Source of the DNA: Myxococcales bacterium
Lineage (GTDB): Bacteria; Myxococcota_A; Polyangia; Polyangiales; DASUME01
DNA: 64,000 bases
Reading direction: 5' to 3'
Assembly (NCBI GenBank): GCA_047601445.1
Contig: JASGJH010000001.1
Coordinates: forward strand, 5,076,201 to 5,140,200
Positions 14,724 through 64,000 of this stretch are shown here, one piece after another. The notes under the pieces were generated by a model. It saw only the letters and a program-made list of their open reading frames with translations, did no database searches and was not told where the DNA came from. A program made the position numbers and the translations under genes. Every line of letters begins with the position of its first letter. The first letter of the stretch is position 1.

Positions 14724-14996
14724 AACCCTACCGACCCATCAACCGGGCTGATCCGCACCCCGAAAAGTACGGCTAGCTTCAATCATATCGGGCGCTTAGC
14801 CGCCGCGATTGAGGGCACGCTAAAGCGCACCCTCCCCCTTGTCAAGCGGAGGTCCGGAAGATGTCGTAAGGTTATGAAACTGCTCGGTTTGATCCGTCCT
14901 TGGGACGCCCAACCGGGGGACTTGACGCGGGGGCCAAAAACCCCTTCCTGAACCTGCCCTCGATGCTGCCAAAAGGCAGTTGTAGGAGAGTGCTCG

Positions 14997-15692: not shown

Positions 15693-15772
15693 AAGTAAAG
15701 GACAGCTCGCTTCGCCCTCGAACGCTCAAGCGCCTCTGTTTTCGGGGAAGCCCTCATGGCGGAAGGCTGGTT

Positions 15773-47348: not shown

Positions 47349-47440
47349 CGGACATGGCTCCGGTCGTTGAACGACGCGCCGCGAGGAGCTCCCCTGCGGT
47401 CGTCTCGAGCGCCCGTCGTCGAGGCGCAACACCCCCCAGT

Positions 47441-47455
47441 GCGACCTTCGTGCCA
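47441..47455 (-). promoter_or_regulatory. Candidate sigma-54 promoter (-24/-12) for the efflux operon
   Basis: The minus strand reads TGGCACGAAGGTCGC (consensus TGGCAC-N5-TTGC, one mismatch, correct GG-N10-GC spacing), 93 nt upstream of the HlyD ATG. A GAFTGA-containing activator is encoded divergently. Confidence 0.4.
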
Positions 47456-47632
47456 ACTCGTTCGCTTGATTGAATCGCCGCAAAATCAGCCTGTTCTGCC
47501 ACCCCACGGGCGACCTCCGGAGTTGCCCCCAGTCGATGTGTCTGGGTTTCCGGACAGTCGCTTTCCGGGCCCCCAGACAGCCGCCGCCCATGGCGCACTG
47601 GTACACTCGCAACGAATGCGCGCCCTTCACCC

Positions 47633-50364: not shown

Positions 50365-50409
50365 CCTCTACTCCTGGCTGGGGCCTGCTCCACACGCGCA
50401 CGCCCGCTT

Positions 50410-50424
50410 CGGCACGGCTCCTGC
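50410..50424 (+). promoter_or_regulatory. Candidate sigma-54 promoter for the multicopper oxidase gene
   Basis: CGGCACGGCTCCTGC: GGCAC-N5-CTGC with correct GG-N10-GC spacing. Followed by GGAGGA (50440..50445) and ATG 50449. Confidence 0.35.
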
Positions 50425-50448
50425 TCTTCGATCCGCTTCGGAGGACGA

Positions 50449-51862
50449 ATGGAGGCGCAGATGCGGGGGCGGCGAGCGGTGTGGATGGCGGTGCTAGCCA
50501 GTGTCGGACTCGTTGGTTGTAGTGACGATGGAGGCTCGGGCTTCGCGTACAAGAAGGGCCTGCCGTTCTCGGAACCCAAGGAATTCCACAGCGAGAACGG
50601 CGTGACCTCCGTGCAGCTCCTGTCGAAGGAAACCGCGGTGGACATCAGCGACGCCACCGTGAAGGGGACGGTCTACAACGGCGCATTCGTGGGACCCACG
50701 CTGCATGTGGCGCCTGGAGAGACCCTGCGTGTGCACCTGCAAAACGACCTCAAGCAGCACACGAACATCCACTATCACGGCATGCACGTGTCCCCCGAGG
50801 GCAACAGCGACAACATCTTCCTCATGATCGAGCCGGGCGAGAGCTTCGACTACCAGCTCGACATCCCGGCCGACCACGACGTGGGCACCTTTTGGTACCA
50901 CTCACACTCGCACATGGACTCCGAGAGCCAGGTGTTCGGCGGTCTCTCGGGTGTGCTCATCGTGGACGGCCTCGAGCAGAAGCTCCCCGAGGCCTATCGC
51001 GGCATCACTCAGCACGTGTTCGCGCTCAAGGACCTGCAGGTGAAGGACGGCACCATCATCGCCGACAACATCAACTCGGACGCGCCCACGGTTCGCACGG
51101 TGAACGGCCTGGTGGAACCCACGCTCGAGATCGCGCCCGGGGAGACGCAGCTGTGGCGCCTTGCCAACATCAGCGCGGACATCTTCTACGACCTGAGCTT
51201 TGCCACGCAGCCCCTGGTGGTCATCGCCGAAGATGGCAACCCCGTGGAGAAGCTGTGGACGGCGATGGATTCTGGTCCTGCCGCCCGGTAAGCGCTTCGA
51301 CGTGGTCGTCACGGCCCCGACCACCGCTGGCGACTATACGCTCGAGACCTTGGCCTATGACCAGGGCGGAGACATGTATCCGCAGGCCACGCTCGTGAAC
51401 GTGAAGGTCACGGGTGCGATGGCCCCGGCACTGCCTCCGCTTACCGAAGGCCTTGCCCCCGACGACGGGCTTACCTCACCTGATGCCGTGGTGGCGCAAA
51501 CCCGCCAGTTCGTGTTCACCGAGGACGACGACTCCAATCAGTTCTTCATCAACGGCAAGCAGTTCGACATGAACCGCATCGACGCGCTGCCCAAGCTCGG
51601 CACCATCGAGGAATGGACGGTGATCAACAACACCTCGGAGCAGCACCCCTTCCACATCCACATCAACGACTTCAAGGTCCTCTCCATCAACGGCGTCCCG
51701 TACCAGGCCAACGGTGAGCAAGACACGGTGGTGATGCCGCCCGGCGGACAGGCGGTCATCCGCATGGCTTTCCTGGATTTTACGGGCAAATTCGTCTTCC
51801 ACTGCCACATCCTGGCCCACGAGGACGGCGGCATGATGGCGGTCGTAGACGTGGTGCCGTGA
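50449..51862 (+). pseudogene. Multicopper oxidase (Tat/lipoprotein-type signal) interrupted by an apparent +1 frameshift near 51268..51274
   Basis: ORF 50449..51291 carries MRGRRAVWMAVLASVGLVGC, HYHGMHV and WYHSHSH. ORF 51200..51862 (+1 phase) carries LVLPPGKRFDVVV, HPFHIHINDF and HCHILAHEDGGMM. Deleting one T in GAT-T-CTG joins them. Confidence 0.75.
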
Positions 51863-51962
51863 GAGGGGAAGGTGATCGGTTGCGAGCACGGGCACGTGTG
51901 CGAACCGGAGGATGACGGCGCGTTTCGCTGCGCTCACCCGTCGATGCTAGTCTGGCGGGACG

Positions 51963-52532
51963 ATGACCAAGCAAGATCTCGATGTGATCGTTGTGGGTGA
52001 TGGGCCGGGAGGCTTGAGCGCTGCGCTGTTTCTGGCCAAGTCCGGGCTGCGAGTCGTGGTGTACGGGCAGGACAAGACCGCCATGCACTGGGCGCTGCTG
52101 AAGAACTACCTCGGCGTGCCCGAGATGCTCGGCAGCGAGTTCCAGCGTCTTGCGCGCGAGCAGGTCACCACGTTCGGGGGGCGCATCGAGGCGGCGCGTG
52201 TGGAGAGCGTCGCACACGACGCGGGTAGCTTCGAAGTCACTCTCGAGGGTGGACCCAAGGTGCAGTCGCGCTTCTTGATCCTCTCGGAGGGCAAGTCGCC
52301 GCGCCTCGCGCAGCAGCTCGCGCTGGCGAACGACCCCTCCGGTGCCGTGAAGGTGGACATCAACGGCAAGACCTCGCTCGCGGGTGTGTACGCGGTGGGG
52401 CGCCTCGCACGGCCGGATCGCAGTCAGGCCATCATCAGCGCCGGCGATGGAGCCGCGGCCGCCATCGACATCCTCTCGAGCATCAAGGGCGAAGCAGTGC
52501 AGGACTGGGACTCGCCGCCCGAGCAGAAGTAG
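51963..52532 (+). CDS. Short FAD-dependent oxidoreductase (thioredoxin-reductase-like FAD domain only)
   Basis: DVIVVGDGPGGLSAALFLAKSG (GxGxxG) and C-terminal GVYAVGR......QAIISAGDGAAAA. Only 189 aa, with no NADPH domain and no CxxC. Confidence 0.7.
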   Translation: MTKQDLDVIVVGDGPGGLSAALFLAKSGLRVVVYGQDKTAMHWALLKNYLGVPEMLGSEFQRLAREQVTTFGGRIEAARVESVAHDAGSFEVTLEGGPKVQSRFLILSEGKSPRLAQQLALANDPSGAVKVDINGKTSLAGVYAVGRLARPDRSQAIISAGDGAAAAIDILSSIKGEAVQDWDSPPEQK

Positions 52533-52578
52533 CAGCGCTCACGCCGTGACTTTCTTCGGCGCGCGGCACCAGTTCATC

Positions 52579-52636
52579 GTGACGCTTCGCGTCTGGACTC
52601 GGTGTCGCTTCGCGCTGCTCTGGGTGTCGCTTCGCG
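52579..52636. repeat. Three direct copies of GTG(A/T)CGCTTCGCG spaced 23 and 22 bp
   Basis: Read directly: 52579..52591, 52602..52614, 52624..52636. Copies 2 and 3 share the 15-mer GGTGTCGCTTCGCGC. Lies in the spacer upstream of the acyltransferase-gpsA operon. Confidence 0.85.
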
Positions 52637-52660
52637 CCAGGCCGCGCGTACCTGCAGGGC

Positions 52661-54313
52661 GTGCCGGCCACCACCGCAAGCTCGAGCCCGCGGCGCCACT
52701 GGATCAGCGGTATCCAGCGCCATCAGCCCATCGAACCCGTGATCGAGGGCGCCACCATCGCGAGCGACGTCGAGCAGCGTGTGCTCGCACTGCTCACCCA
52801 TGGGGGGCGCCCCCTCGACGACGTCCTGCGCGAGACCATCTATCACGAACGGCAGCGCCTGAATGGTCCGGCTACGCGCCGACAGGCCGTGGACCAACGC
52901 TTGCTCGAGCGCCTGCGTCAGGCCTTGCCCAGCGCGGACGCCCGCCACCAGGAGGAGCTCGTGCGCCTGGTGGTCCGCCACTACCTCACCGAGATCTCGG
53001 GACACTTCGATCCACGCGTGTACCGGCTGGCGACACGGGTCATGCCGCCCGCCCTCGGCGCGCTCCTGCACGGCATCAGCCTGCACAATCGCGATGTGTT
53101 CTACGTGGGCAATCGCATCTCGATCTCGGGACGCGTGGCCAGCCTGTGCAAGCTCAGCGCTCGCGGCACCATCCTGTTGGTGCCCACCCACGTGTCGAAC
53201 CTGGACTCCGTGATCCTGGGCTGGGCTCTCTCGAACTTCGGGCTGCGCCCGTTCGCCTACGGCGCGGGCCTCAACCTGTTCGAGCGGCCGTTGCTCGGCT
53301 TCTTCATGCAGCACCTGGGTGCCTACACGGTCGACCGCAGCAAGCACGACCCGCTCTATCGCTGGACACTCAAGGAGTACGCCACCGCGTTGCTCGAGCA
53401 CGGCCAGCACAGTCTGTTCTTTCCCGGTGGCACACGCAGCCGCTCCGGTGCGCTCGAGACGCGACTCAAGCTGGGCCTACTCGGTACGGGCATCGAGGCG
53501 ATGCGACGCTGCGCGGAGCAGGGCCGACCCAGGCGCGTTTTCGTGGTGCCGTGCACCCTCACCTATCCGCTCGTGCTCGAGGCAGAGAGCTTGATTAGGG
53601 ACTTCCTGCGCACCGAGGGCGGTCCGCAGTACTTCGAGGGCCCCGACGAGTCGGAGCATCTGCAGCGCTGGGTCGAGCTCATCCGCGGACTGTATCGGCT
53701 CGACCTGCAGGTACACCTGCGCTTCGGCGCGGCGCTCGATCCCATCGGCAACGAAGTGGACGACGAGGGGCGCTCCCAGGATCCGAGCGGACGCCTGGTG
53801 GATCCGCTCGACTATCTGCGCGCGACTTCCGACAGCTCCGAGGTGCGCCTCGACCCGGAGCGTGACGCCGAGTACACCCGACTGCTCTCGGCCCGCATCC
53901 TGGCGGCCTACCCGCGGGACGTGGTGGCCGTGTCCACCAGCGTGGCAGCCCACGCCATCTTCGAGCTGCTCACCGAGGCGAGCCGAGAGAGGAGCGTGTT
54001 CCGCATGCTGCAGGAGATTCCCCCGAGCGTGCCCTTGACGCTCGACGCCATCACGGCGCGTATCGCGCGCAGCCTACCCGCACTCGAGGCCGCGGAGCAG
54101 CGCGGCGAGATTACGCGGGCGGAGATCGTGCGGCGCGGATCGCCGGGCGTGATCCTCGAGAAGGCCATCGCGACCTTCGCCACCTACCACCACGAGCGCA
54201 TCGCGAGCCGCGAGGGAGAGCTCCTGCGCATCCATCGGCCCGACCTCGTCTACTACTACCAGAACCGCGTGGCCCCTCACCTCTCGTCCTCGAGCTCCGG
54301 AGGATCCCCATGA
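52661..54313 (+). CDS. Glycerol-3-phosphate / lysophospholipid acyltransferase (PlsB-like GPAT family, short form)
   Basis: HX4D motif in LLVPTHVSNLDS, FFPGGTRSRSG, plus a long helical C-terminal region. ATGA overlap with gpsA. Confidence 0.8.
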   Translation: MPATTASSSPRRHWISGIQRHQPIEPVIEGATIASDVEQRVLALLTHGGRPLDDVLRETIYHERQRLNGPATRRQAVDQRLLERLRQALPSADARHQEELVRLVVRHYLTEISGHFDPRVYRLATRVMPPALGALLHGISLHNRDVFYVGNRISISGRVASLCKLSARGTILLVPTHVSNLDSVILGWALSNFGLRPFAYGAGLNLFERPLLGFFMQHLGAYTVDRSKHDPLYRWTLKEYATALLEHGQHSLFFPGGTRSRSGALETRLKLGLLGTGIEAMRRCAEQGRPRRVFVVPCTLTYPLVLEAESLIRDFLRTEGGPQYFEGPDESEHLQRWVELIRGLYRLDLQVHLRFGAALDPIGNEVDDEGRSQDPSGRLVDPLDYLRATSDSSEVRLDPERDAEYTRLLSARILAAYPRDVVAVSTSVAAHAIFELLTEASRERSVFRMLQEIPPSVPLTLDAITARIARSLPALEAAEQRGEITRAEIVRRGSPGVILEKAIATFATYHHERIASREGELLRIHRPDLVYYYQNRVAPHLSSSSSGGSP

Positions 54314-55326
54314 CGAGCAACGCTCCCCTGCAGATCGCCGTGCTCGGCGCCGGTGATTGGGGCTCTACGCTCGCGCTGATCGCCGCCGGCAATGGCCATC
54401 ACGTGGGCGTGTGGGCCCGCAGCGAGGCACGTTGCACCGCGCTCGAGCGTCGGGCGGCGCAGAGCCCGCTTCTGCTCGGCCCGGAGCGCACGGGCGGTTC
54501 ACTGCACGCCACGCTGCATCCCGAGCCCCTTCTCGAGTCCGCCGACCTGGTGCTGATGGCCGTGCCCTCGCCTGCCTTTCGCGAAGCCTGCCGCGGCCTG
54601 CGCGCGGCACTCGAGCCGCGCCATCTCTTGATCCATGGCACCAAGGGGCTCGAAGTCGGCTCGCTCAAGCGCATGTCGGAAGTGCTCCTGGAAGAGACCT
54701 GCGTGCGTCAGTTCGGTGCCCTGTCCGGCCCCAACATCGCCCCCGAGCTCGCGCAAGGAAAGCCGGCGGGCAGCCTGATCGCCTCGCCGTTTCCGCGCGT
54801 GGTCGAGCTCGGCAAGCGCGCGCTCTCGTGCCGCTTCTTCATGCTCTTTCACGGACCCGACTTGCTCGGACTCGAGCTGTGCGGTGCGCTCAAGAACGTG
54901 GTGGCCATCGCCGCCGGCATGGCCGACGCCATGCAGGTGGGCGAGAACGCCAAGGCCCTGCTCATCACGCGCGGTGCGGCCGAGATCCGGCGTTTGGCCG
55001 AGTCCATGGGTGCGCAGCCCAACACCATCACGGGCCTCGCCGGCATCGGGGATCTGATGGTCACCTGCGCCAGCCCCCACTCACGCAATCGGCGCCTGGG
55101 TGCCGCCCTGGCACGCGGGGAGAGCATGGAGAATGCGCAAGCCCAGCTCGGGATGGTCGCCGAAGGCGTGTATGCAGCCAAGGCCATCATGGTGCTTTCG
55201 CAACGTAAGGAGCTGCGCCTCCCCTTGCTGCAAAGCATCGCACGCGTGCTCTACGATGGAGTCGCCCCGCAGCGGGCCCTCGATGCGCTGATGCGCATGC
55301 CGGCTGGACACGAAGGAGCCGGCTGA
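54310..55326 (+). CDS. gpsA: NAD(P)H-dependent glycerol-3-phosphate dehydrogenase
   Basis: IAVLGAGDWGSTLA Rossmann motif, GALKNVVAIAAG, GLAGIGDLMVTC. Confidence 0.92.
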   Translation: MTSNAPLQIAVLGAGDWGSTLALIAAGNGHHVGVWARSEARCTALERRAAQSPLLLGPERTGGSLHATLHPEPLLESADLVLMAVPSPAFREACRGLRAALEPRHLLIHGTKGLEVGSLKRMSEVLLEETCVRQFGALSGPNIAPELAQGKPAGSLIASPFPRVVELGKRALSCRFFMLFHGPDLLGLELCGALKNVVAIAAGMADAMQVGENAKALLITRGAAEIRRLAESMGAQPNTITGLAGIGDLMVTCASPHSRNRRLGAALARGESMENAQAQLGMVAEGVYAAKAIMVLSQRKELRLPLLQSIARVLYDGVAPQRALDALMRMPAGHEGAG

Positions 55327-55356
55327 GCGAGGGCCTCAGCCAACCCCGCCCGCGCG

Positions 55357-56328
55357 CTACTTGTTCACGCGATCGCAGGTGGGGTAAGGCCCGCAGGTCG
55401 AGAAGTCGCGAAACCACTTCTGAACGATCGACCCGTCAGGATTGCGGTCGTGCGTGGCCTCGAGCACCTCGAGTAGATGAGCCCGCGACATGGCGAGCGG
55501 TGCCTCGTAGGGCACGTAGGTGGTGCCCACCGGGTAGTCCGCGTACGGCCCCTTCTGCTCGATATGTGTGCCCAGCACGTGCGTCACGATCTTGTCGCTG
55601 GTGAAGTCGACCAGGCGTTGCGCACTGGCGGCGAAGACCTCGGGGTCGCCGTTGACGTAGATGCGACCGGGGTAGAGAGAGTCGCCCGTCAACAGCACAC
55701 CGGTCTGCCGGTCGTAGACCGCAATGCTCGTCACGTCGTGGCCGGGGACGGGGATGATATCGAGCACGCGCCCGCCGAGATCATAGGCCACCACGCTGTT
55801 CGGCCACTGCGTGATGCCGAACGCTTGCTGCAGCGCGGCCACGCTCCCGTTGGGGATCAACGTGACGTTGGGCAGATCGGTGAACTGATAGTCGCCGTAA
55901 GTGTGATCGCCATGGGAGTGCAGGTGGGTGACCACCAGCGGGATCGAACGTCGCTTGTGCTTGATCAACCAGAGGGCCATCACCTTCTTCACGGCGCCCG
56001 CGACGTCGGGTGCACCCGCCACCGACGTCGAGCCGGCACCGGTGTCGAACAAGATGGCCTTGTCTTTCCCGAAGAGCAGATACAGGAACGGCTTCTCATC
56101 GTTCACACAGCCCGACTCACGCAGGATGTAGAAGTCGTCGTTGTACGCGTGCACCTGGAACTCGGGCGAAAAGCGAGTGCAGTGAGGGCTTCCCGAGCTC
56201 CAAGCCGCAGGCAGCGCGCCGGGCACGACCTCGGCCACCGTATCGGCTGCGCGGGAGGTGGGGGAGAGCGACGTGAGCGCCAGAGCAAACGCGGCGCAGC
56301 CAGAAACCAGGCGATTTTTCCAAGACAT
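55357..56328 (-). CDS. Secreted MBL-fold metallo-hydrolase
   Basis: ATG 56328 gives the signal peptide MSWKNRLVSGCAAFALALTSLSPTSRA. HxHxDH motif in VVTHLHSHGDHTYGD. Confidence 0.8.
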   Translation of the reverse strand: MSWKNRLVSGCAAFALALTSLSPTSRAADTVAEVVPGALPAAWSSGSPHCTRFSPEFQVHAYNDDFYILRESGCVNDEKPFLYLLFGKDKAILFDTGAGSTSVAGAPDVAGAVKKVMALWLIKHKRRSIPLVVTHLHSHGDHTYGDYQFTDLPNVTLIPNGSVAALQQAFGITQWPNSVVAYDLGGRVLDIIPVPGHDVTSIAVYDRQTGVLLTGDSLYPGRIYVNGDPEVFAASAQRLVDFTSDKIVTHVLGTHIEQKGPYADYPVGTTYVPYEAPLAMSRAHLLEVLEATHDRNPDGSIVQKWFRDFSTCGPYPTCDRVNK

Positions 56329-56466
56329 GGGAGATGACACCTCATCTTTCGAACAACTGTCGAAACGATGGTTTTCTCCCATACTCAATTTTAGAATGTG
56401 TTTCGAAACGGATAATTGGAACGCATCAACCGCGCAGCGCGCTGCACGCCGCTCGTGTGCTCTCTC

Positions 56467-57243
56467 TCACGGTACGCCTTCGGTCACCAGCTGTTGAATG
56501 CGCGTGCGATGCGTGGACTTGGGGAAATCCTTCCCGAAGGCCTGCGCGCGTTGAGCCGCTGCGGGCTGCTTGCCGGTACGCACGAGCGCTTCGATGGCGA
56601 GCACCTCGCGCTCTTCGGCGAAGGCTCCACGTGGATACTCACGTGCATGCTCCTCGGCCAGCTCGAGCGTGCGACCGGGGTCGGCCAGGAGCACACGGCG
56701 CGCCCGCATCAAGATGGAGAGCTCGGCCGCCGGGTCGTGCTTTTCGACCTCGGGCGTGACGGTGGGCAGCTCGGCGGGCTTGACGCGCGCCTTCTTCTCC
56801 GCGCGCCTCACGGGCTGCTCGAGCGGTACAGGCGCAGGATCCACGCTCCGCTCGGGCCGGGCAGACAAGGCCTGCACAGAGGGATCTTCCACGGGCTGGG
56901 CAGGTTGGATCGGAACCACGATGGACGGAGCCTTGGGTTCCTGACGCGCCCAGTACATGCCGAGCAATCCGACCAGCGTGATCAGCATGCCGAACTTCAG
57001 GAGCGTGCCACTCCGCACGGACTTCACCGGACGAGGCGGACTCGGCGGTGCCGTCTCGGCAGCCGCTGCGGCCTCGGCAGCCAGGCGAGCCGAGAGCTCG
57101 GTGAACATACGCACCCGCTGATCGCCGTTGGGACCCACCTTGGCCTCGTGCGCGAGACCCAGGGCCACCGTCCGCCAATCGTCATCGCGCTCGAGCCAGC
57201 GCGGGGGGGCTTGACGTGGCTCATCCCGCACTCCTCTTCGCAT
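56467..57243 (-). CDS. Anti-sigma factor (single TM, periplasmic helical domain)
   Basis: ATG 57243 (or GTG 57231) overlaps the ECF sigma gene end. Cytoplasmic N-terminus, TM LLKFGMLITLVGLLGMYWA, Pro-rich linker, C-terminal helical-repeat-like domain. No HxxxCxxC zinc motif. Confidence 0.65.
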   Translation of the reverse strand: MRRGVRDEPRQAPPRWLERDDDWRTVALGLAHEAKVGPNGDQRVRMFTELSARLAAEAAAAAETAPPSPPRPVKSVRSGTLLKFGMLITLVGLLGMYWARQEPKAPSIVVPIQPAQPVEDPSVQALSARPERSVDPAPVPLEQPVRRAEKKARVKPAELPTVTPEVEKHDPAAELSILMRARRVLLADPGRTLELAEEHAREYPRGAFAEEREVLAIEALVRTGKQPAAAQRAQAFGKDFPKSTHRTRIQQLVTEGVP

Positions 57244-57787
57244 AGGCACGCCGCTGTTGCGCCGCCTGAACCTTTTGTACGAAGCGCTGAATCTCCTCAC
57301 GCGCCGCGTACAAACGCGAGAGCGCCGTGCTCTCGGGAACATCGAGACTCGCTGCCACCTCGGCCATGGTGAGCCCCTCGAGCTCGTACAGCGCGAACAC
57401 CTCGCGCTTATCGTCGTCCATGCGCGTGAGCGCTTCGGCCGCCAGCTCCAGTACCTGCTTCTGCGAAGCGAGGTCGAAGGCCGTGACCAGCGAGGTCCCC
57501 GACGTGTGCTCACTCTCCTCGATATCGAGCACCTCGCGCCGGAGATGGGCCTTGCGCCGATGGCCGAGCGCCACACGCGCCGCGATACCGTAGACCCACG
57601 TGCGCATGCTGGAACGCCCCTCGAACTCGGGTAGCCTGCGATGCACCACCAAGAACACTTCCTGACAAGCGTCCTCGAGCTCGCGCTCAGGCACCCCGTG
57701 GCGCTTGAGCACGCGCCACACGAAGTCCACGTGCTCGGCGAAGAGCACATGGAAGTTCGTGCGAAGCTCGTGGACGTTGGGGTTCAT
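57221..57787 (-). CDS. ECF (group 4) sigma-70 family sigma factor
   Basis: ATG 57787. Region 2 FVWRVLKRHGV...LEDACQEVFLVVHRRL..F and region 4 REVFALYELEGLTMAEVAASLDVPESTALSRL. Confidence 0.9.
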   Translation of the reverse strand: MNPNVHELRTNFHVLFAEHVDFVWRVLKRHGVPERELEDACQEVFLVVHRRLPEFEGRSSMRTWVYGIAARVALGHRRKAHLRREVLDIEESEHTSGTSLVTAFDLASQKQVLELAAEALTRMDDDKREVFALYELEGLTMAEVAASLDVPESTALSRLYAAREEIQRFVQKVQAAQQRRAYAKRSAG

Positions 57788-59109
57788 TGGGGGAAGTCGA
57801 AGCGCGCTAGCTGATGAGTGGAGGTCAGGGCGTACACGGCATTGTCGTTGCCAGCGACCAGCTCGTAGGGAGCGATGCCCGGCACCAGCACGCAGCTCAC
57901 CTGCTGCGCGTCGTTCATCCGGCAAAGCGTGGCGGTCTGGGCGTCGCGCTCACCCGTGGAGGTGATCAAGTAGCTGCCTCCAACACGGTCTGGGGCCTGC
58001 TTGGAAACCGTCATCAGCGTGAACCCCACACGTTGTAGGAGCACTTCATCGACGCCCGCGTCATTCACGCGCATCCAATGGATGTCCCCGACCAAATCGT
58101 CAGGTGTCGCCACCACCACGCGCCCCGCAGAGTCAGCGGACAGGCTAACGGAAGCGCCGCCGCCGAAATAGCCCCTGGACAAGACATTGCCGGTCTTCCA
58201 GTCGAGATCCGAGACTTGCATCGCCCATTCGTACGTGGAGTCATCGCCCGACAGGGTTACCGGTTTTCCGTCCTTCGCGGGAGAAGCATTCAGAAAGTCC
58301 GTTCCCAGCTTTCTGTTGACCACCGTGAGCACGTCGGAGCTCTTCAAGAACGCGATCGCTTCGTTCGGTGAACCCTCGATCGGAATCTCCCCCAGCGCAC
58401 CTTGCTGCCAGCTAGCGTGACCGTCCGCCGAGGTCCGTTGCGCGATCATTCCTGCCTTGAAGCCGAGAAACATGAAGTTCGAACTCGTGGGATCGCGCTG
58501 CGCCGAACTGAGCGCCCCAAACTCGTGGAAGAAGCGCGTCGCCGGCTCCTGAGCCGTCGCCCCGAGCGCGATGAACTCGTGCCAGATGGCACCACTTCCA
58601 TCGGCATGGCCGACACAGTTCCAGGCCCAGCGCGTGCTGAACACGGAGTCCTGGCCTCCCATGAGGCCGTAGAGCGAGAGGACTGAGCCCTTGTCGTCGA
58701 TCTTTCCGTCGCAAGGAAGCTTGGCCGCGGGCATGCCGATGTCCTGGCTCCCGAGTTCCTTCTCGGCATCGAACTGGCGTACCTTGAACGTGAACTGTCC
58801 GTCCTGCTTCTGCACGACCCAGACGGTGCCGTTGGCGCCCGCAGTGAGGATGACTTCAGTGGTGTCCGTCGAACCGAGGTCCCAGGTGGTGGTCGGGCTC
58901 AAGGTCGGCAGGTCCCGCATCGGATAGGTCGCAACCAGGTTCGCCGCCCCCAGGCTTTCCGCCTTGGGCAGCTCGCAGCTCGACTCGATGCACGGTTCCT
59001 TCATGTTGCCGATGTTTCCCTGGTCTCCACAGGCCACGATCGACAGCGCCCATAGCGCACCGCGACCCGCCACCCAGCAACTGCCCTTGCCCTGTCCCAT
59101 TCGCTTCAT
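57784..59109 (-). CDS. P-family lipoprotein paralog P1 (unknown function)
   Basis: MKRMGQGKGSCWVAGRGALWALSIVAC lipobox. Shares the motif and Cys framework with P2-P4 and ends ARFDFPQ. Its stop overlaps the ECF sigma ATG (ATGA). Confidence 0.75.
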   Translation of the reverse strand: MKRMGQGKGSCWVAGRGALWALSIVACGDQGNIGNMKEPCIESSCELPKAESLGAANLVATYPMRDLPTLSPTTTWDLGSTDTTEVILTAGANGTVWVVQKQDGQFTFKVRQFDAEKELGSQDIGMPAAKLPCDGKIDDKGSVLSLYGLMGGQDSVFSTRWAWNCVGHADGSGAIWHEFIALGATAQEPATRFFHEFGALSSAQRDPTSSNFMFLGFKAGMIAQRTSADGHASWQQGALGEIPIEGSPNEAIAFLKSSDVLTVVNRKLGTDFLNASPAKDGKPVTLSGDDSTYEWAMQVSDLDWKTGNVLSRGYFGGGASVSLSADSAGRVVVATPDDLVGDIHWMRVNDAGVDEVLLQRVGFTLMTVSKQAPDRVGGSYLITSTGERDAQTATLCRMNDAQQVSCVLVPGIAPYELVAGNDNAVYALTSTHQLARFDFPQ

Positions 59110-59135
59110 GCCCGTTCGTGCGGGTCACTTGGCCT

Positions 59136-59158
59136 TTCCTCGAAACTTTTCTCGCTCT
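59136..59158 (-). promoter_or_regulatory. Conserved leader box A upstream of P1 (sense strand AGAGCGAGAAAAGTTTCGAGGAA)
   Basis: The 23-mer is identical to 61588..61610 although the P1 and P2 coding sequences are strongly diverged. Confidence 0.5.
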
Positions 59159-59172
59159 GGCCCTTCTTCCCT

Positions 59173-60240
59173 TCAAAACAGCAAACTGGGGCCCATATTC
59201 ACCACGTACGATACCCGGGGCACCTCGAAGGCCGTGGCGTCGTGGTCGATCACGAAGCGCCGGGAAAGCGCATTCACGCGCGCCGCTCCCGAGGCCGAGA
59301 GGCCCCAGTGCTCCGCCAGCCGCACCAGGAGCTCCAGCCCCAACGAGACCCCGAAGCCACTGAGAACAGCGCTGTCATTGCTCAAGAATCCGCTACCCTT
59401 CTGCCGCCACAGGGAGTACTCGGGCGAGAGGCAGGCCCGCAGGTGCAGGCGCCCCCCGAGGTCACCCCCCGAGCACATACCGATCACGAAATCGAATGCT
59501 TGGGCCTTCACCGCCGTGTTTTGGCTCAAGTGCATCCCCCCGAGCCCGGACGCGCCGCGAAAGGTGCTCACCATGCTCAGCCTGCGACGCAGGCGAGAAG
59601 CGAAGGAAAGGCTGGCACCCACGAGCGGATCCGGGGCGACCCCGAACTCGGCGAGAGCGGCCAGGCGTACGTCACGGGGCGGCCACGGACGGACGGACTC
59701 AGGCTTTGGAGTTGGGGCAAGAAGCGGGGCGGGCTCGGGCGGACTGAACTCCGGCACGGGTGCTGGCGGCATTTCATCGAGCTCACTCAGGAGCCGCTTC
59801 TCTGCGGGCTCTTCGCTCGAGAGCAGCCCCAGCAGTGCCGGGGGGAGATCCGCCAGAGAGAGATTCGGATCCACCATCATGGCCACGATGAACACCAGAG
59901 GCTCGTCGAGCTCACGACAGTCCACCGCGTTCTGCTCGAGCACACGCTGGCCACCCGGCGCGCCCCCACGCTCCGACAACGTGATGCGCGCGTAGTAGCG
60001 CCCAGGCGCCACCGCCTCGATGTGTCCCTCGATGAAGCGCGCCGCATGCGCAGGAGCATTCAGGCTGGTGCCGGTGAGTTGCTCCACCCGCTCCGCCAGC
60101 GTGGCGGGGTCGATGCAACCCACGGCGTTCTCGGAGCGCGACCAGTGCAACGCAGGAGCGTCACCGACATCGGCTTGGGCGCCGCTGGTGAGCGCGAGCG
60201 CGAGCACGGCGCCGCAGAGCGTGGCCCTCAGCCGAAACAT
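59173..60240 (-). CDS. Secreted protein, possible outer-membrane protein (C-terminal ..NMGPSLLF)
   Basis: ATG 60240 gives the signal peptide MFRLRATLCGAVLALALTSGAQA. N-terminal globular part, Pro-rich linker (PPAPVPEFSPPEPAPLLAPTPKPE), beta-rich C-terminal part ending in Phe. Confidence 0.6.
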   Translation of the reverse strand: MFRLRATLCGAVLALALTSGAQADVGDAPALHWSRSENAVGCIDPATLAERVEQLTGTSLNAPAHAARFIEGHIEAVAPGRYYARITLSERGGAPGGQRVLEQNAVDCRELDEPLVFIVAMMVDPNLSLADLPPALLGLLSSEEPAEKRLLSELDEMPPAPVPEFSPPEPAPLLAPTPKPESVRPWPPRDVRLAALAEFGVAPDPLVGASLSFASRLRRRLSMVSTFRGASGLGGMHLSQNTAVKAQAFDFVIGMCSGGDLGGRLHLRACLSPEYSLWRQKGSGFLSNDSAVLSGFGVSLGLELLVRLAEHWGLSASGAARVNALSRRFVIDHDATAFEVPRVSYVVNMGPSLLF

Positions 60241-60301
60241 CGAGCCGCTATGTAGCAAAGCGAAGCAGGTTCTTCACTAGGTCTCGCCGCGCTACGAAAC
60301 C

Positions 60302-61567
60302 TCACAAGGGAAAGTCGTAGCGCACGAGGGAAGGCTTCTGCTGTATGAGCGGGTCAGTATGCACGGCGTAGAGGACTCCAGGCTGGTCCGAGACGGCGAG
60401 CTCAAATATGTTGGGCATCGGCATCACTGCGCACGAGATCGTTCCTGCGTCTCCCCAGCGACATACCGTCGGCTGCTCAGCGCCGCGCTCGCCCGAGCGG
60501 GTCAGGAGGTAGGTTCCTCCCAGCGCGTCAGGCTCCAACGCGTACGGATCCATCAGCGTATAGCTCGAGCGCACCATGGTCACACCATCCGTCGTCGTTC
60601 CATCGGACCGCAGCCATTCGATATCGCCCGACGAATTGGTTGCCGCAACCACCGAACGCCCACGAGAGTCGACGGCCACACGGTATTGTGACCACGGCAG
60701 GTAGTAGGCGTGCTGGGACACGACATTGCCGGTGTCCCAGTCCAACGTGAAGTGGGTGATGAGGTCCGGAGGTCCGAAGCGTCCCACCAACGCTAGCTGG
60801 TTCGCGGCGTCGAATGCGATGCGGAGTCCGCCAGCGGTGTCCAATGGCCCGGTCACAGGTCCAGTGGCTGACTGCTGCCACAGCAACTCGCCGTGGCCAT
60901 CGATGCGACTTGGAATCACACCGTTTCCCATGCTCAGCACGGCGTAATCCTTCGCGTTGGACAAACGTTGGATCGCATAGGGAGGCATGACCGTCGGATT
61001 GTCTCGATGAAGCAGCGTTCGAGTCGGCCCCTCCTGCACGGTCGCCCCGAATGAGACCAGCTCCAGCCGATAGTCCGCAGTTCTGCCGTCACAATAGGAT
61101 TGCCAGTCGGCCACGAGCAGTGGCCCTGGACTGCTCGTGACAATTCGTTGACTGACGATCGCTTGGTCGAGTTCGAAGGTGCAACCCGGCCCGGCCTCGG
61201 GAGCCGGAACGTCGAGCGCACCCAGCTCCGTGCCGTCGGCCTGAATCTGACGCACGTGGTAGGAGGACCCGGCCAAGGAGACTTCCCAGACGGTGCCATT
61301 GGTACCGGCCGCAATCGAACCGCTGAGCGGAATCGACCAGGCAGCCTCGAGCACCCCCATGCTCGGCATCACCTCGGTGACTTGGTCATCGGAGGCGGGT
61401 GACTGGGCCTCTTTCGGGAGCTCGCAGGAGATCTTCTCTCCCACGCAGAACGCGTTGTTCTCTCCGACGCTCGCCGAATCCCCGCATGCGCCCACGAGCA
61501 CCAGCCCCCCACCAAGCAGGACTGTCTTGTACTTCGCCATGAACACCGCCTTCACCTTCATGCCCAT
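60302..61567 (-). CDS. P-family lipoprotein paralog P2
   Basis: Start is ATG 61567, 61561 or 61540. ..MAKYKTVLLGGGLVLVGAC lipobox. Ends VRYDFPL. The ORF extension to 62014 overlaps P3. Confidence 0.75.
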   Translation of the reverse strand: MGMKVKAVFMAKYKTVLLGGGLVLVGACGDSASVGENNAFCVGEKISCELPKEAQSPASDDQVTEVMPSMGVLEAAWSIPLSGSIAAGTNGTVWEVSLAGSSYHVRQIQADGTELGALDVPAPEAGPGCTFELDQAIVSQRIVTSSPGPLLVADWQSYCDGRTADYRLELVSFGATVQEGPTRTLLHRDNPTVMPPYAIQRLSNAKDYAVLSMGNGVIPSRIDGHGELLWQQSATGPVTGPLDTAGGLRIAFDAANQLALVGRFGPPDLITHFTLDWDTGNVVSQHAYYLPWSQYRVAVDSRGRSVVAATNSSGDIEWLRSDGTTTDGVTMVRSSYTLMDPYALEPDALGGTYLLTRSGERGAEQPTVCRWGDAGTISCAVMPMPNIFELAVSDQPGVLYAVHTDPLIQQKPSLVRYDFPL

Positions 61568-61587
61568 GCGTGCAGCTGGGCGCATCG

Positions 61588-61610
61588 TTCCTCGAAACTT
61601 TTCTCGCTCT
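61588..61610 (-). promoter_or_regulatory. Conserved leader box A upstream of P2
   Basis: Identical 23-mer to 59136..59158, lying between the P3 stop (61627) and the P2 start. Confidence 0.5.
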
Positions 61611-61626
61611 CTCCGAGTGGCCAGCG

Positions 61627-62928
61627 TCAGAGGGGAAAGTCGTAGCGCACCAGATGCCGCTGAAAATGCTCGTCGCTGTGGACGCCGTACACCACTCCGC
61701 GCTGATCGGAGACGGCGATCATTTGCATCTCGAGCAAGGGTGTCAGAGCACACGAGACCTGCTGAGTGTCGCTCAGGTAGCAAAGCGTGGTCTCGTCTGC
61801 ACCGCGGTCGCCGGTGCTCGTCAAGAGGTACGCGCCGCCAAACGCGTCCGGCTGCAGTGCGTGCACTGACATCAGCGTGTAGCTGGAGCGAACCATGGTG
61901 AACCTGGTCGAGACCGTCCCGTCGATGCGGAGCCACTCGATGTCGCCGGTGCCGTTGGTCGCCGCCACCACCAGGCGATTGCGGGAGTCGATCGTCGTCT
62001 TGTACTGCGGCCATGGCATGAAGTCGACGCGCTGGGACAACACATTGCCCGTGTTCCAGTCGATTCTGTAGGTGGTGAGGTTCTGAACGTAGTCCTGCAC
62101 GTTGCTTGGCACCGTGACTCCAAAGCGTCCCACGAGCAGCAGTTGATCGGCTCCGCCGAAGGCGACCATGGTCTCGAACTCATCCATCGCCTGCGGCGTG
62201 CTCACGCTCACCGTGGCGTTCTGCTGCCAGAGCACCTCGCCTCGCGCGTCGACGCGAGCCGAGAACCAACCATCCATCACGCTGAGGACTGCAAAGTCTT
62301 CGGCCCCAGGCGGACGCTGGATCATGCGAGGGTTGAAAGGAGCAGGATTTCCCTGCGCAAGCATGGTTCGCGAAAAGCCCTCCTGCACGCTGCCCTTCAA
62401 CGCGTAGGCCTCGATCTGGTTTTGGGGAACCGCGGGCGCACAGTTGTTGTACCAGGTCGTGAAGAAAACCGGTCCCGGGTTGCTCGGATACAGCCAGGCG
62501 CCCGAGTTAGCCACATCGGCGTCGAAGCGGCAGCCGTGTTTGGGCTCGGGCGGGGGGATGTCCAGCGTACCGAGCTCCGCACCATCATCCCGAAGTTGGC
62601 GCACATGGAAGGACTCAACTGCGGCACCGCCAGCCGAGATTTCCCACACCGTGCCATTGGTGCCGGCCGCGATCGATCCGTTCCCCAGAGGTACCGACCA
62701 GGTCGGATCGAGCAGCTCTATCGTCGGCGTCACGTCCGCATTCGAGGGATCAACCACCCCTTGGTCGAACTCCTCGGGCAGCTCGCAGGAGATCTTCTCT
62801 CCGAGGCAGGACGTGCGGTTGTCCCCGACGCTGGCCGAGTCACCACACGCGCACGCCAGCATCAGCATTCCGCCAAGCACGGCCTTCTTGTTTCTTGCCA
62901 CGGTCACCACCTTCACTATCAAGCCCAT
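61627..62928 (-). CDS. P-family lipoprotein paralog P3
   Basis: Start is ATG 62928, ATG 62946 or GTG 62901. ..ARNKKAVLGGMLMLACAC lipobox. Ends VRYDFPL. By eye, about half of aligned residues are identical to P2. Confidence 0.75.
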   Translation of the reverse strand: MGLIVKVVTVARNKKAVLGGMLMLACACGDSASVGDNRTSCLGEKISCELPEEFDQGVVDPSNADVTPTIELLDPTWSVPLGNGSIAAGTNGTVWEISAGGAAVESFHVRQLRDDGAELGTLDIPPPEPKHGCRFDADVANSGAWLYPSNPGPVFFTTWYNNCAPAVPQNQIEAYALKGSVQEGFSRTMLAQGNPAPFNPRMIQRPPGAEDFAVLSVMDGWFSARVDARGEVLWQQNATVSVSTPQAMDEFETMVAFGGADQLLLVGRFGVTVPSNVQDYVQNLTTYRIDWNTGNVLSQRVDFMPWPQYKTTIDSRNRLVVAATNGTGDIEWLRIDGTVSTRFTMVRSSYTLMSVHALQPDAFGGAYLLTSTGDRGADETTLCYLSDTQQVSCALTPLLEMQMIAVSDQRGVVYGVHSDEHFQRHLVRYDFPL

Positions 62929-62948
62929 GCGTGCAGTCACGCGCATCG

Positions 62949-62969
62949 TTCCTCGAGATTTCGCGCGCT
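62949..62969 (-). promoter_or_regulatory. Diverged copy of leader box A upstream of P3 (sense AGCGCGCGAAATCTCGAGGAA)
   Basis: Same position relative to the start codon. The adjacent CGATGCGC..CTGCACGCATGGGC block is nearly identical to the P2 leader. Confidence 0.4.
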
Positions 62970-62981
62970 GGGCGCTCGATT

Positions 62982-64000
62982 TCAGATGGGAAAGTCGAAG
63001 CGCGCGAGACGTGTCCCGGTCTGTTGATCCCACGCCTGCGCGTAGAGCACGCCGGGGATGTCCGAAACGACGAAGTTGCGCGCTTCCGGCACCAAGGCGC
63101 AGGAGATCGCCATGGCGTCGTTCATGTAACAGAGGGTCTGAACGGCCGCGTTGCGATCGCCGGAGGCAGTCACGAGATAGGTGCCACCCACGCTGTCCGC
63201 GATGAGCGATTGCACCGCAAGGTAAGTATAACCTTCACGGATGATCGTCCTCTCGTCGAGCGCGGCTCCCTGCGAGCGCGACCACGAGATGTCCCCGCTG
63301 TAAGTGCTGCCCGCAACGACCGTTCGTCCCTCGGAGTCGAGCGCAAACGTCGCACTACCGTCCAACAGGAGGCCGGGCACGGCCGTCCGAGATTGCACGC
63401 TGCCAGTCTCCCAGTCGAGCACGACCATGGAAGGCGTCACGCTACCCTGGTCCTGCGGCAGCTCACCGATCACGACCAAGGAGCCATCGACTCCCCAGAA
63501 GAGCGACGCGTAAGTAAAATTCCCGAACTCGAGCTCTCGGTCGTAGAACTCTCTCGCGATCGACGACTGCTGCCAGACGATGTCCCCGGCGGCGTCGATC
63601 CGCGTCGGCGCCCAACCTTTCGGGAAGAGGGGCAGCACCGCGTGTTCGTTGCTCTGCGCCTTGCGCGCCAGGACAGGTGGAACCGTGTTGCCGGTAACAT
63701 CGAGATCGGCACGGGTGACCGGCTCGGATACGCTCGAGCCGAAATCGATGACCTCCGCCTGAGTGTCGTAGATGCCTCCCGGGCAGTGCACTGACCAGCC
63801 AACGACCAGCGTCGGTCCAGGATCGCCTTGGTTGAGGCTGAACACGGGGATGTCCTGCTGAACGCACTTGAGGTCCGCCGGGGGCAGGATGTCTTGCGTC
63901 CCGAGCACCCCTCCATCGGCATTCAGCTGCCAAAGACGGATCCCGGTCAGGCCGAGTACCGCGGTGGCTGACCAGAAGGTTCCACCAACACCAGCAACCA
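62982..64000 (-). CDS. P-family paralog P4, N-terminus beyond the window edge
   Basis: ORF 62982..63908 stays open in frame to nt 64000 (..VAGVGGTFWSATAVLGLTGIRLWQLNADGGVLGTQD..), matching the AGTNGTVW...VRQ..DG.ELG region of P2/P3. Ends ARFDFPI. Confidence 0.75.
   Translation of the reverse strand, partial: VAGVGGTFWSATAVLGLTGIRLWQLNADGGVLGTQDILPPADLKCVQQDIPVFSLNQGDPGPTLVVGWSVHCPGGIYDTQAEVIDFGSSVSEPVTRADLDVTGNTVPPVLARKAQSNEHAVLPLFPKGWAPTRIDAAGDIVWQQSSIAREFYDRELEFGNFTYASLFWGVDGSLVVIGELPQDQGSVTPSMVVLDWETGSVQSRTAVPGLLLDGSATFALDSEGRTVVAGSTYSGDISWSRSQGAALDERTIIREGYTYLAVQSLIADSVGGTYLVTASGDRNAAVQTLCYMNDAMAISCALVPEARNFVVSDIPGVLYAQAWDQQTGTRLARFDFPI

Follow-up and report, generated by a model that had tools for sequence, protein, structure and literature searches.

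In cell-surface signaling of the FecA-FecR-FecI kind (ECF243 and related FecI-like groups), an outer-membrane (OM) beta-barrel with an N-terminal periplasmic domain adjoins a single-pass anti-sigma factor and an ECF sigma factor, the main sigma target is a gene in the same cluster, and the OM component is paralogously expanded in some genomes. These features have counterparts in a locus situated within a 64,000-nucleotide stretch of DNA (the window) that encodes an ECF sigma factor, an anti-sigma factor (AS), an OM barrel protein (X) and four lipoproteins (P1-P4). However, X is an 8-stranded barrel of OmpX/Ail size and not a 22-stranded TonB-dependent transducer, it lacks Plug, TonB_dep_Rec and STN domains, and AS lacks a FecR domain. 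The locus also includes an extra conserved lipoprotein propeller, and it is this component that bears the putative promoter.

Other systems resemble the locus in part. In the Pseudomonas aeruginosa SigX-CfrX-CmpX-OprF system (ECF102), the ECF sigma factor is conserved beside OprF, an OM protein whose 8-stranded barrel is OmpA-like and which is suspected of a role in sigma regulation (PMC7826278). In contrast, the present module has no mechanosensitive channel or CfrX-like gene, the propeller lipoprotein is absent from the Pseudomonas system, and the peptidoglycan-binding domain of OprF is C-terminal whereas the domain of X is N-terminal and of an unnamed type. RcsF (with OmpA/OmpC/OmpF and IgaA), NlpE-Cpx and LpoB are OM-lipoprotein stress sensors on long inward tethers; in these systems the state of the envelope is reported jointly by a lipoprotein that is anchored in the OM and carries a long disordered linker, by an OM barrel and by a partner in the inner membrane. 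The P proteins likewise have a tether of ~45 residues and those of X and AS are long and Pro-rich, with contact among P, X and AS being hypothetical here, but the folds are unrelated and a phosphorelay or two-component system takes the place of the ECF sigma factor. Finally, in TolB-Pal an alpha/beta N-domain and a beta-propeller occur together with a partner anchored in the OM, and TolB chains are among the weaker matches that Foldseek gave for the X model (E ~1e-4, probability 0.7-0.9, TM-scores ~0.2). This resemblance is a lead and not an established similarity, as N-domain and propeller here sit on two separate proteins and Tol genes are absent from the cluster.

We conclude that the locus is a previously uncharacterized module in which the P gene has been amplified as a tandem array. 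It probably represents an envelope module of four components that is organized around an ECF sigma factor and specific to one lineage (Polyangia-type Myxococcota), with P as an induced output that is maybe also a variable co-receptor.

Organization of the locus

Seven co-directional genes follow one another on the minus strand in the order P4, P3, P2, X, P1, sigma and AS, and ORF calls and translations place all of them where an earlier note on this DNA had put them. The genes and associated elements are:

56467..57243, minus strand: anti-sigma factor AS, 258 aa (ORF, translation, hydropathy)
57221..57787, minus strand: ECF (group 4) sigma factor, 188 aa (Pfam, NCBIfam)
57784..59109, minus strand: P1, predicted beta-propeller lipoprotein, 441 aa with this uncertain start (alignment, AF2, Foldseek, family profile)
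59113..59147, minus strand: promoter-like element before P1, AGTTTCGAGGAA-N15-CACGAA
59173..60240, minus strand: X, predicted outer-membrane protein, 355 aa (AF2, Foldseek)
60302..61567, minus strand: P2, predicted beta-propeller lipoprotein paralog, likelier start 61540 (alignment)
61565..61599, minus strand: promoter-like element before P2, AGTTTCGAGGAA-N15-CACGCA
61627..62928, minus strand: P3, predicted beta-propeller lipoprotein paralog, likelier start GTG 62901 (alignment)
62926..62960, minus strand: weaker promoter-like element before P3, AATCTCGAGGAA-N15-CACGCA
62982..64000, minus strand: P4, predicted beta-propeller lipoprotein paralog truncated at the edge of the window; 424 aa when complete (P0004)
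59115-59120, 61567-61572 and 62928-62933, minus strand: CAC(G/T)(A/C)A blocks of the P1, P2 and P3 elements
TTCGAGGAA: sequence block belonging to the P1-P3 promoter-like elements

The short gaps that had been described between these genes are present, but with the starts first assigned they measure 53-63 bp and not 43-63 bp. With those starts the sigma and AS ORFs share 23 nt, and the ATGA overlap reported between the stop codon of P1 and the start codon of sigma is seen at 57784-57787. The intergenic gaps of the array contain no terminator-like site. The ATG codons first chosen for P2 (61567) and P3 (62928) are not retained, as each overlaps a -10 block within a conserved promoter-like element. 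This block is too near these codons, so either the gene starts need revising or the mRNAs are leaderless. Judging from the sequence, likelier starts lie 27 nt downstream in both cases, at an ATG with GAAGG in front of it for P2 (61540) and at a GTG for P3 (62901); the latter is the start of a catalogued 424-aa protein, P0002, that maps to 62901..61630. The P1 start is uncertain and may be 59109 (leaderless), 59100 or later.

The sigma factor contains the Pfam domains Sigma70_r2 (5.8e-12) and Sigma70_r4_2 (8.7e-10) and scores over the cutoff of TIGR02937, with no specific NCBIfam equivalog over its cutoff; its clade may already be numbered within the ECF classification. Hydropathy analysis of AS indicates one hydrophobic span (residues 81-99) forming a TM helix, preceded by a short Cys-free cytoplasmic N-region and followed by a periplasmic linker rich in Pro and, at the C-terminus, a conserved helical domain of ~85 aa. 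A Pfam search of AS gave no match. AS is 36% identical to the gene after sigma in two other loci (L002 and L003), where conservation is best in the C-terminal domain, and matches to its HMM adjoin sigma genes in dozens of loci.

Conserved neighborhood and a shared promoter-like motif

When loci were sought with P only, all six long contigs recovered (P0016, P0017, P0028, P0027, P0022 and P0026) read sigma-AS-X-P; homology was confirmed partner by partner for the loci with DNA (L002, L003, L162 and L163). Among sigma-seeded loci, L088 reads sigma-AS-X-P, L008 reads sigma-AS-P and ~35 read X-sigma-AS. The sigma-last layout pointed out previously is present, but it is not unique to the window since the same X-P-sigma-AS order occurs in L007, L086 and L087. 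The four genes co-occur on one strand in three permutations, and the ECF neighborhood is kept in every long contig with a P homolog as well as in sigma-seeded loci. The earlier view that the lipoproteins, OM partner and ECF pair form one module is upheld by this conservation and by the lack of a named family to which the lipoproteins map.

Linkage is strongest for X, which is adjacent to sigma-AS in 2/2, 16/17, 10/32 and 1/38 loci as the sigma factors become less similar, the second value being that of the sigma clade next in closeness; it is linkage to X that defines the sigma clade. Sequence identity across loci is 56-64% for sigma (the range obtained against sigma factors from P-linked loci), 35-55% for AS, 30-57% for X and 23-32% for P. 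The conserved core is X-sigma-AS, with P as a fast-evolving addition.

A bipartite motif, TTCGGGGAA-N15-CACTCA, is found upstream of sigma in sigma-first loci, and in each X-P gap read the same motif immediately precedes the P gene. Its general form, TTCG(G/A)GGAA-N15-CA(C/A)NCA, is ECF-style. A matrix trained only on sigma-upstream sites from five foreign loci was used to scan both strands of the whole window, where the element before P2 ranked first (18.4 bits), the element before P1 second (17.9 bits) and that before P3 sixth (13.0 bits); a Markov-1 null gave a maximum of 17.4, reached in 2/20 simulated windows. Taken alone the P3 score is within the random range, and its element has the position and spacing of the P1 and P2 copies. 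A 23-nt block upstream of P1 (59136-59158) recurs before P2 with 100% identity (repeat D10), although the two proteins are only ~30% identical.

Over 3.26 Mb of scanned loci, the best untrained matches score 23.3 (L090) and 21.0 (L085) upstream of sigma, and 21.4 (L162 and L003), 17.6 (L007), 17.5 (L001) and 16.5 (L088) in X-P or P-P gaps. The motif with N15 spacing is also readable in the X-P gaps of L086, L087, L002 and L163. The motif choice was not fully blind, as the window repeat was noticed ahead of defining the foreign motif; in an unbiased 8-mer count TTTTCGGG ranked first (8/8 upstream regions), with shuffled controls also reaching 8/8 in 4/30 trials. At least three of the four P copies visible in the window look as if they keep a putative promoter of the sigma factor's own type. 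Occurrence of the motif upstream of both sigma and the P genes suggests that the P genes are likely the direct regulon of sigma, which agrees with the coupling proposed earlier between the array and its sigma pair.

A proposed model for signaling and a possible role of X

We propose that the sigma factor would transcribe the P genes and, via the P genes or directly, itself, with P1, P2 and P3 each having one putative promoter copy in the window. The P1 promoter would drive P1-sigma-AS through ATGA coupling, thus allowing positive autoregulation despite the sigma-last order; a promoter before P together with P-sigma coupling would explain this seemingly "reversed" arrangement. X would be transcribed by read-through from the P2 promoter. 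Signal reception most likely would occur in the periplasm or at the OM, with a likely route being that the tethered X N-domain touches the AS C-domain such that AS is inactivated and sigma is freed. P evolves fastest and is amplified most among the parts; it would be the induced output and perhaps a variable co-receptor too, with the tandem array constituting a paralogous expansion of output under one sigma factor. A sensory role for X or P may be proposed from synteny, tether architecture and analogy.

X is predicted to consist of a signal peptide, a conserved alpha/beta N-domain in the periplasm (~residues 30-123) that bears a conserved Cys pair, a linker rich in Pro and, at the C-terminus, an 8-stranded beta-barrel (AF2 model with pLDDT 85.6, 20-sequence alignment), in keeping with the OM protein predicted previously at this position. 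The terminal residue is Phe, as in 18/20 homologs. Best Foldseek matches are Ail, OmpA-TM, OmpX, NspA and OmpW (target TM-scores 0.62-0.77), and the barrel is predicted with high confidence to be OmpX/Ail/OmpA-like; a Pfam search of X gave no match.

A possible though doubtful alternative is that AS alone senses, with X and the P paralogs merely its regulon. The two would then form a structural OM pair, in which a variable lipoprotein that is possibly exposed at the surface docks on a small barrel or close to it, and which could be used for adhesion, prey or kin contact or evasion, with tandem divergent copies supplying variety. The putative sigma-type promoter on P, which would make P a target, the rapid evolution of P, its tandem duplication in both the window and L001, additional X and P paralogs in the same genome (QM778_21415-21425) and the location of X inside the autoregulated operon in sigma-first loci are all consistent with this scheme, but surface exposure is hypothetical and several properties of X fit poorly. 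X is tied to sigma-AS far more tightly and widely than is P (16/17 loci), which is unusual for a mere target; its conservation peaks in the periplasmic N-domain and not in the barrel; and it lies upstream of the sigma-type promoter in X-P-sigma-AS loci.

The P lipoprotein family

Homology with strong divergence, as first described for P1-P4, is confirmed by tblastn, with full-length pairs being 29-49% identical (P2 and P3 at 49%). In a four-way alignment P2-P4 are each 32-35% identical to P1 and 66 columns are invariant, and every shared motif listed earlier can be located: a lipobox Cys, C..SCELP, AGxNGTVW, WQQ, DWxTG[NS]V, GDIxWxR, GGxYLxT..GxR, LC[RY]..D....[VI]SC and an R[FY]DFP tail. This likeness, at the sequence level, far exceeds chance. 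A family profile, which P1 matches at E=4e-185, recovers 84 proteins at E<=1e-3 from 1.84 billion representative proteins (~84 clusters at 50% identity), nearly all of them 400-460 aa, indicating that the family is small and rare. Across 52 aligned full-length members, invariant residues include the lipobox Cys, another two Cys pairs and the tail R. In line with the earlier note, neither Pfam nor NCBIfam nor PDB sequences provide a family to which these proteins can be assigned.

The AF2 model of P1, of moderate confidence and built on a four-sequence alignment (pLDDT 64.8, pTM 0.68), is all-beta, and Foldseek returned propellers only. The members are thus modeled as lipoproteins with a beta-propeller, the two conserved Cys pairs and the tether. 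Against PDB sequences the profile matches the 7-bladed 6-phosphogluconolactonase YbhE (1.7e-7), designed Pizza propellers (~1e-6) and the periplasmic gluconolactonase PpgL (3e-5).

Such matches raise the unlikely prospect of an inducible enzyme array, with P proteins as periplasmic or OM-anchored propeller hydrolases or lyases (lactonase/SGL/strictosidine-synthase-like/Vgb-lyase kind), each paralog having its own substrate, for example lactones or antibiotics of competitors, and being induced by the ECF pair under the matching stress. Scattered sub-threshold Pfam matches to SSL_N, SGL and Vgb_lyase, the enzymes CylK, tetrathionate hydrolase and paraoxonase among the top Foldseek matches, and near-invariant charged residues (E178, R192, R347, R360, D374 and R436) point in this direction. 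However, all of the matches are under family thresholds and span one or two blades, as expected of generic propeller similarity, and non-enzymatic propellers match equally well (designed Pizza proteins and, by fold, NHL domains and clathrin). Identity per alignment column averages only 21%, no recognizable metal-binding or catalytic constellation was found, and the obligatory partner X is left unexplained. That the array has no functional connection with the neighboring sigma/anti-sigma pair is highly improbable and already contradicted by synteny, given the full gene set on all six long P-seeded contigs, linkage through three gene orders, the promoter-like motif common to the genes and the P1/sigma ATGA overlap.

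The array and its gene starts

Seven consecutive genes on the minus strand make up the array, and all of them were recovered where the earlier note had placed them, including the ATGA in which the stop codon of P1 overlaps the start codon of sigma, which is present in the sequence:

56467..57243, minus strand: ORF of AS, a single-pass anti-sigma factor
57221..57787, minus strand: ORF of the ECF sigma factor
57784..59109, minus strand: ORF of the lipoprotein P1
59173..60240, minus strand: ORF of X, a predicted outer-membrane barrel protein of 355 aa with a signal peptide
60302..61567, minus strand: ORF of the lipoprotein P2, with its start as first proposed
61627..62928, minus strand: ORF of the lipoprotein P3, with its start as first proposed
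62982 to the window end, minus strand: ORF of the lipoprotein P4

With these starts the intergenic gaps reach 63 bp, as had been reported, and their lower end is 53 bp and not 43 bp. The description of P1-P4 as homologous and diverged holds, with 66 invariant columns in a four-way alignment that include every motif listed earlier. In this alignment P2-P4 are 32-35% identical to P1, while full-length pairs compared by tblastn are 29-49% identical, with P2 and P3 at 49%.

The ATGs originally chosen for P2 (61567) and P3 (62928) overlap the -10 block of a promoter-like element, and downstream starts are therefore likelier, namely an ATG at 61540 for P2 and a GTG at 62901 for P3, where the catalogued protein P0002 also begins. 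Both are preceded by GAAGG and fit better than the original ATGs. P1 would either be leaderless at 59109 or start further downstream.

Conservation of the neighborhood

Six members of the P family are located on contigs long enough to reveal their context (P0016, P0017, P0028, P0027, P0022 and P0026), most of them only distant relatives of the window copies. All six contigs carry, on one strand and in this order, a sigma gene, a protein of ~180-280 aa, a protein of ~345-395 aa and P, and in the loci with DNA the two middle genes are homologs of the window AS and X. We also scanned 80 genome and 77 metagenome loci seeded on sigma with HMMs for all four proteins. The window order, X-P-sigma-AS, recurs in L007, L086 and L087, the order sigma-AS-X-P occurs in L088, and sigma-AS-P occurs in L008, where sigma lies at the contig edge. 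About 35 further sigma-seeded loci, among them Minicystis rosea DSM 24000, contain X-sigma-AS without P, and a tandem P-P arrangement is also present in L001. The finding is thus real, and its interpretation as lipoproteins and an outer-membrane protein coupled to their own ECF pair is supported by the co-occurrence test that the earlier note itself had named, as the ECF neighborhood is conserved.

As similarity to the window sigma drops, the fraction of loci with enough flank in which X is adjacent to sigma falls from 2/2 to 16/17, 10/32 and 1/38, so X linkage defines a sigma clade. P is restricted to the closest branch of this clade. When the window is compared with eight P-linked loci (seven for P), sigma shows 56-64% identity, AS 35-55%, X 30-57% and P 23-32%, P being the fast-evolving part of the module.

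In Minicystis rosea DSM 24000 (L020:11220-12503, CP016211) X-sigma-AS occurs without P, and after it comes a 427-aa lipoprotein with a Kelch propeller, the repeats of which match PF24681 (1e-27) and which is unrelated to P. This protein may have replaced P without being homologous to it, and a Kelch lipoprotein in the position of P would fit a rule that admits any propeller lipoprotein; the single Minicystis case hints at a general design of triad plus propeller lipoprotein. Lipoproteins of unknown family also come next in the P-less triads L011 and L016. Lipoproteins that follow P-less triads were considered as hidden P homologs and rejected, since the P profile gave <=10 bits with filters off.

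The 9.5-Mb MAG contig from which the window is taken additionally has three consecutive genes, QM778_21415, QM778_21420 and QM778_21425, for an X-like protein of 305 aa, a P-like protein of 428 aa and an X-like protein of 375 aa (P0104, P0007 and P0092), none of which is inside the window. Together with the array this cluster gives the source genome at least five P and at least three X paralogs, and it could be a direct continuation of the array past 64000.

Sigma, anti-sigma and the two envelope protein families

The sigma factor (188 aa) matches PF04542 (Sigma70_r2, 5.8e-12), PF08281 (Sigma70_r4_2, 8.7e-10) and PF07638 (9.4e-9) and is an ECF (group 4) sigma, a class defined by about 180-200 aa with sigma-2 and sigma-4 domains only and without sigma-3 or sigma-1. 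It passes the generic ECF model TIGR02937 (75.7 bits versus a cutoff of 42.9) and no specific NCBIfam equivalog, the best being PRK12518 (82.6 versus 208); Myxococcales family 1 (TIGR03001) also scores below its cutoff (44 versus 154.6). AS has one hydrophobic span (residues 81-99), followed by a Pro-rich periplasmic stretch and a C-terminal domain (about 85 aa), which is the part kept in relatives. It falls outside the zinc-binding (ZAS) and RskA class I anti-sigma factors, which are recognized by HxxxCxxC in an N-terminal anti-sigma domain or by a Pfam match to zf-HC2 or RskA: AS has no Pfam match at E<=1 and no Cys in its 258 aa, and for want of Cys it is not a zinc-binding anti-sigma. We call it an anti-sigma because of its position, the start-stop overlap, the single transmembrane span and its conserved pairing with sigma.

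A model of X based on 20 homologs (pLDDT 85.6) has three parts:

About residues 30-123: alpha/beta N-domain
Between N-domain and barrel: Pro-rich linker
Residues 189-354: C-terminal barrel, pLDDT mostly above 90

Foldseek matches to the barrel are Ail (5.4e-8), OmpA-TM, OmpX, NspA and OmpW, with target TM-scores of 0.62-0.77 (0.75 for OmpX and 0.77 for OmpW). X is thus assigned, at fold level only, to the small 8-stranded outer-membrane barrels (the OmpX/Ail/OmpA-TM/OmpW fold); its sequences do not belong to Pfam OMP_b-brl, which matched 1/20 homologs at E=0.03. A terminal Phe is found in 18/20 homologs and, along with the barrel model and the Foldseek matches, it backs the earlier prediction that 59173..60240 encodes an outer-membrane protein. 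The best-conserved part of X is its N-domain, with a conserved Cys pair and the pattern PALHWSR..C[IV]DP..LA..VE.LTG...IEGHIE...G.R.L...CR.LD. Profile-to-PDB sequence searches with X and with AS gave no matches.

Of 1.84 billion representative proteins, 84 matched a profile built from P1-P4 at E<=1e-3 and 49 did so at E<=1e-10, nearly all of them 400-460 aa long; named members are annotated as "hypothetical protein" and come from Myxococcales and Polyangiales MAGs. The lipobox Cys is invariant in 52/52 aligned full-length members, as are a C-x4-C-like pair that directly follows it, another Cys pair close to the C-terminus and the Arg of the tail L-x-R-[YF]-[DE]-[FLV]-P. P1-P4 have the features of bacterial lipoproteins (boxes IVAC, VGAC, CACG-type and LTGC), with Gly and not Lys at position +2. 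AlphaFold predicts an all-beta structure for P1 (pLDDT 64.8, pTM 0.68), and all of the top 50 Foldseek matches listed contain a beta-propeller, at query TM-scores of only 0.2-0.48. As for membership of the six- or seven-bladed propellers of the NHL / SGL-lactonase / YbhE kind, no Pfam propeller family is above threshold in any of the 52 members, and neither Pfam nor NCBIfam gave a match to P1-P4, X or AS. The propeller fold is clear from the all-beta model and the Foldseek matches, and with its lipobox P is a predicted lipoprotein beta-propeller; none of the libraries searched has a model for its family. Two other searches were insensitive: a word-indexed homolog search, run first on P2 and later on the 52-sequence profile, returned self matches and one fragment only, and a pattern-based locus search from P alignments, which are short of conserved stretches, found nothing.

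Candidate promoter, proposed signaling route and flanking genes

The gaps before P1, P2 and P3 share a repeated sequence. A 23-nt non-coding block on the minus strand, AGAGCGAGAAAAGTTTCGAGGAA, is 100% identical before P1 (59136-59158) and P2 (61588-61610) even though these two proteins are about 30% identical, and a third copy (62949-62971) is 70% identical. It forms the upstream, or -35, half of the promoter-like element, whose candidate version at P genes includes the block TTCGAGGAA. Five sigma-first loci (L003, L162, L163, L088 and L002) have TTCGGGGAA-N15-CACTCA upstream of sigma, 24-86 nt before the sigma match. A weight matrix was trained on these five foreign sites only, with the caveat that the window repeat had been seen before the foreign motif was defined, and it placed the window elements as follows:

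61565-61599: P2 element, top match of the 64-kb window on both strands, 18.4 bits
59113-59147: P1 element, second match of the window, 17.9 bits
62926-62960: P3 element, rank 6 of the window, 13.0 bits

Markov-1 simulated windows reached 17.4 in 2/20 cases and never exceeded it, and an unbiased 8-mer count was weakly discriminating. Across 3.26 Mb of related loci the best untrained matches upstream of sigma were in L090 (23.3) and L085 (21.0), and those in X-P or P-P gaps were in L162 and L003 (21.4), L007 (17.6), L001 (17.5) and L088 (16.5). By eye, L086, L087 and L163 also have both blocks with N15 spacing in their X-P gaps, and L002 has a copy with this spacing just inside the 3' end of X. 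Before X in L086 (~3600-3700) and L087 (~2450-2550) there is a different shared short sequence, TGGCGCTAAGAAG, in place of the sigma-type motif, which suggests that X may have a separate promoter in the X-P-sigma-AS order. A sigma-70 promoter and terminator scan, otherwise uninformative, detected no terminator-like site in any array gap, and Rfam gave no match in 55000-64000.

Sequence comparison thus describes a conserved four-gene module with a candidate promoter on both P and sigma, the predicted locations being cytoplasmic for sigma, across the inner membrane for AS, an outer-membrane barrel for X and a lipoprotein for P. We propose that sigma would recognize the promoter-like element, autoregulate where it is first in order and transcribe P everywhere, such that the P array would be sigma-dependent with positive feedback. 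The P1 copy in the window would drive P1-sigma-AS through the ATGA junction, which would account for the sigma-last order that had been described as reversed, and transcription from the P2 promoter would run on into X. A signal could enter via the periplasmic N-domain of X and the C-domain of AS, both on long tethers, with P as an induced output and possibly a variable co-receptor; any function beyond this regulatory wiring we infer.

A rival explanation that also treats P as an output holds that X and P may serve purely as outputs, such as a set of variable surface lipoproteins. The P proteins could also be lactonase-like enzymes; a profile search of PDB sequences did match the YbhE lactonase (1.7e-7) and PpgL (3e-5), weakly and over 1-2 blades, as it did the designed propeller Pizza6 (about 1e-6). 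Linkage of the module by chance adjacency is contradicted by the synteny data. An extension of our proposed wiring that we consider rather improbable is a TonB-independent trans-envelope route in which the tethered periplasmic N-domain of X would gate the C-terminal domain of AS, while P1-P4 and other paralogs, interchangeable with one another, would serve as co-receptors for specific ligands, each sigma-induced and each feeding back into sigma. If true, one sigma would integrate several extracellular cues through the paralog array.

Among bacterial signaling systems, ECF sigma/anti-sigma pairs rank as the third major one and, to our knowledge, it is not known for most ECF groups which envelope proteins pass the signal on. 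The logic of the module resembles FecIRA cell-surface signaling, which is characterized by a 22-stranded TonB-dependent transducer with a plug, an STN signaling domain and a FecR-family anti-sigma. However, no TonB_dep_Rec, Plug, STN or FecR was found in X, AS or 20 X homologs, and the X barrel matches the 8-stranded OmpX, Ail and OmpA-TM. There is a looser resemblance to the SigX/CfrX/CmpX/OprF locus (ECF102; PMC7826278), which has a mechanosensitive channel and a CfrX-like gene beside sigma and OprF downstream. The neighbors of the window sigma are P1, X and the anti-sigma, with no mechanosensitive channel, and an MBL-fold protein, gpsA and an acyltransferase are downstream of sigma-AS. The main text of that classification (Casas-Pastor et al. 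2021, PMC7826278) contains no description matching the module, and nothing relevant turned up in literature searches on myxobacterial ECF sigmas accompanied by a propeller lipoprotein and an outer-membrane barrel, which leaves the module undescribed in the searchable literature. Relative to known ECF envelope signaling, the novelty is best described as two undescribed partner families plus a tandemly amplified, promoter-bearing target gene.

For one clade that has not been studied, the module supplies a full list of candidate parts, namely X and P (two protein families with no database model), the sigma/AS pair and a candidate target promoter of fixed geometry, and this list makes the regulatory logic directly testable. 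As the complete genome of the named strain Minicystis rosea DSM 24000 (L020) contains the X-sigma-AS core, the uncultured source of the window is not needed for experiments. The tandem, promoter-bearing, fast-diverging P array is also a clean case in which to study ECF regulon expansion by target duplication.

The MBL-fold gene was considered as a further part of the module; it has no homolog in roughly 160 related loci and is probably outside it. The region 45357-55326 contains ordinary housekeeping and regulatory neighbors with no obvious link to the module, including an ABC ATPase and an HlyD-family fusion protein. The flanking genes are:

49033-50364: NtrC-type sigma-54 activator
50449-51291: multicopper oxidase
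52661-54313: PlsC-like acyltransferase
54310-55326: gpsA
55357..56388, minus strand: secreted metallo-beta-lactamase-fold (MBL-fold) protein, 78 nt downstream of AS on the same strand

The metagenome contig L002 has, beside its sigma-AS-X-P module, another ECF sigma (11327-16017) that is unrelated and is paired with an anti-sigma of the RskA_C type. A DyP-type peroxidase and two unknown genes, on the opposite strand, lie in front of this sigma.
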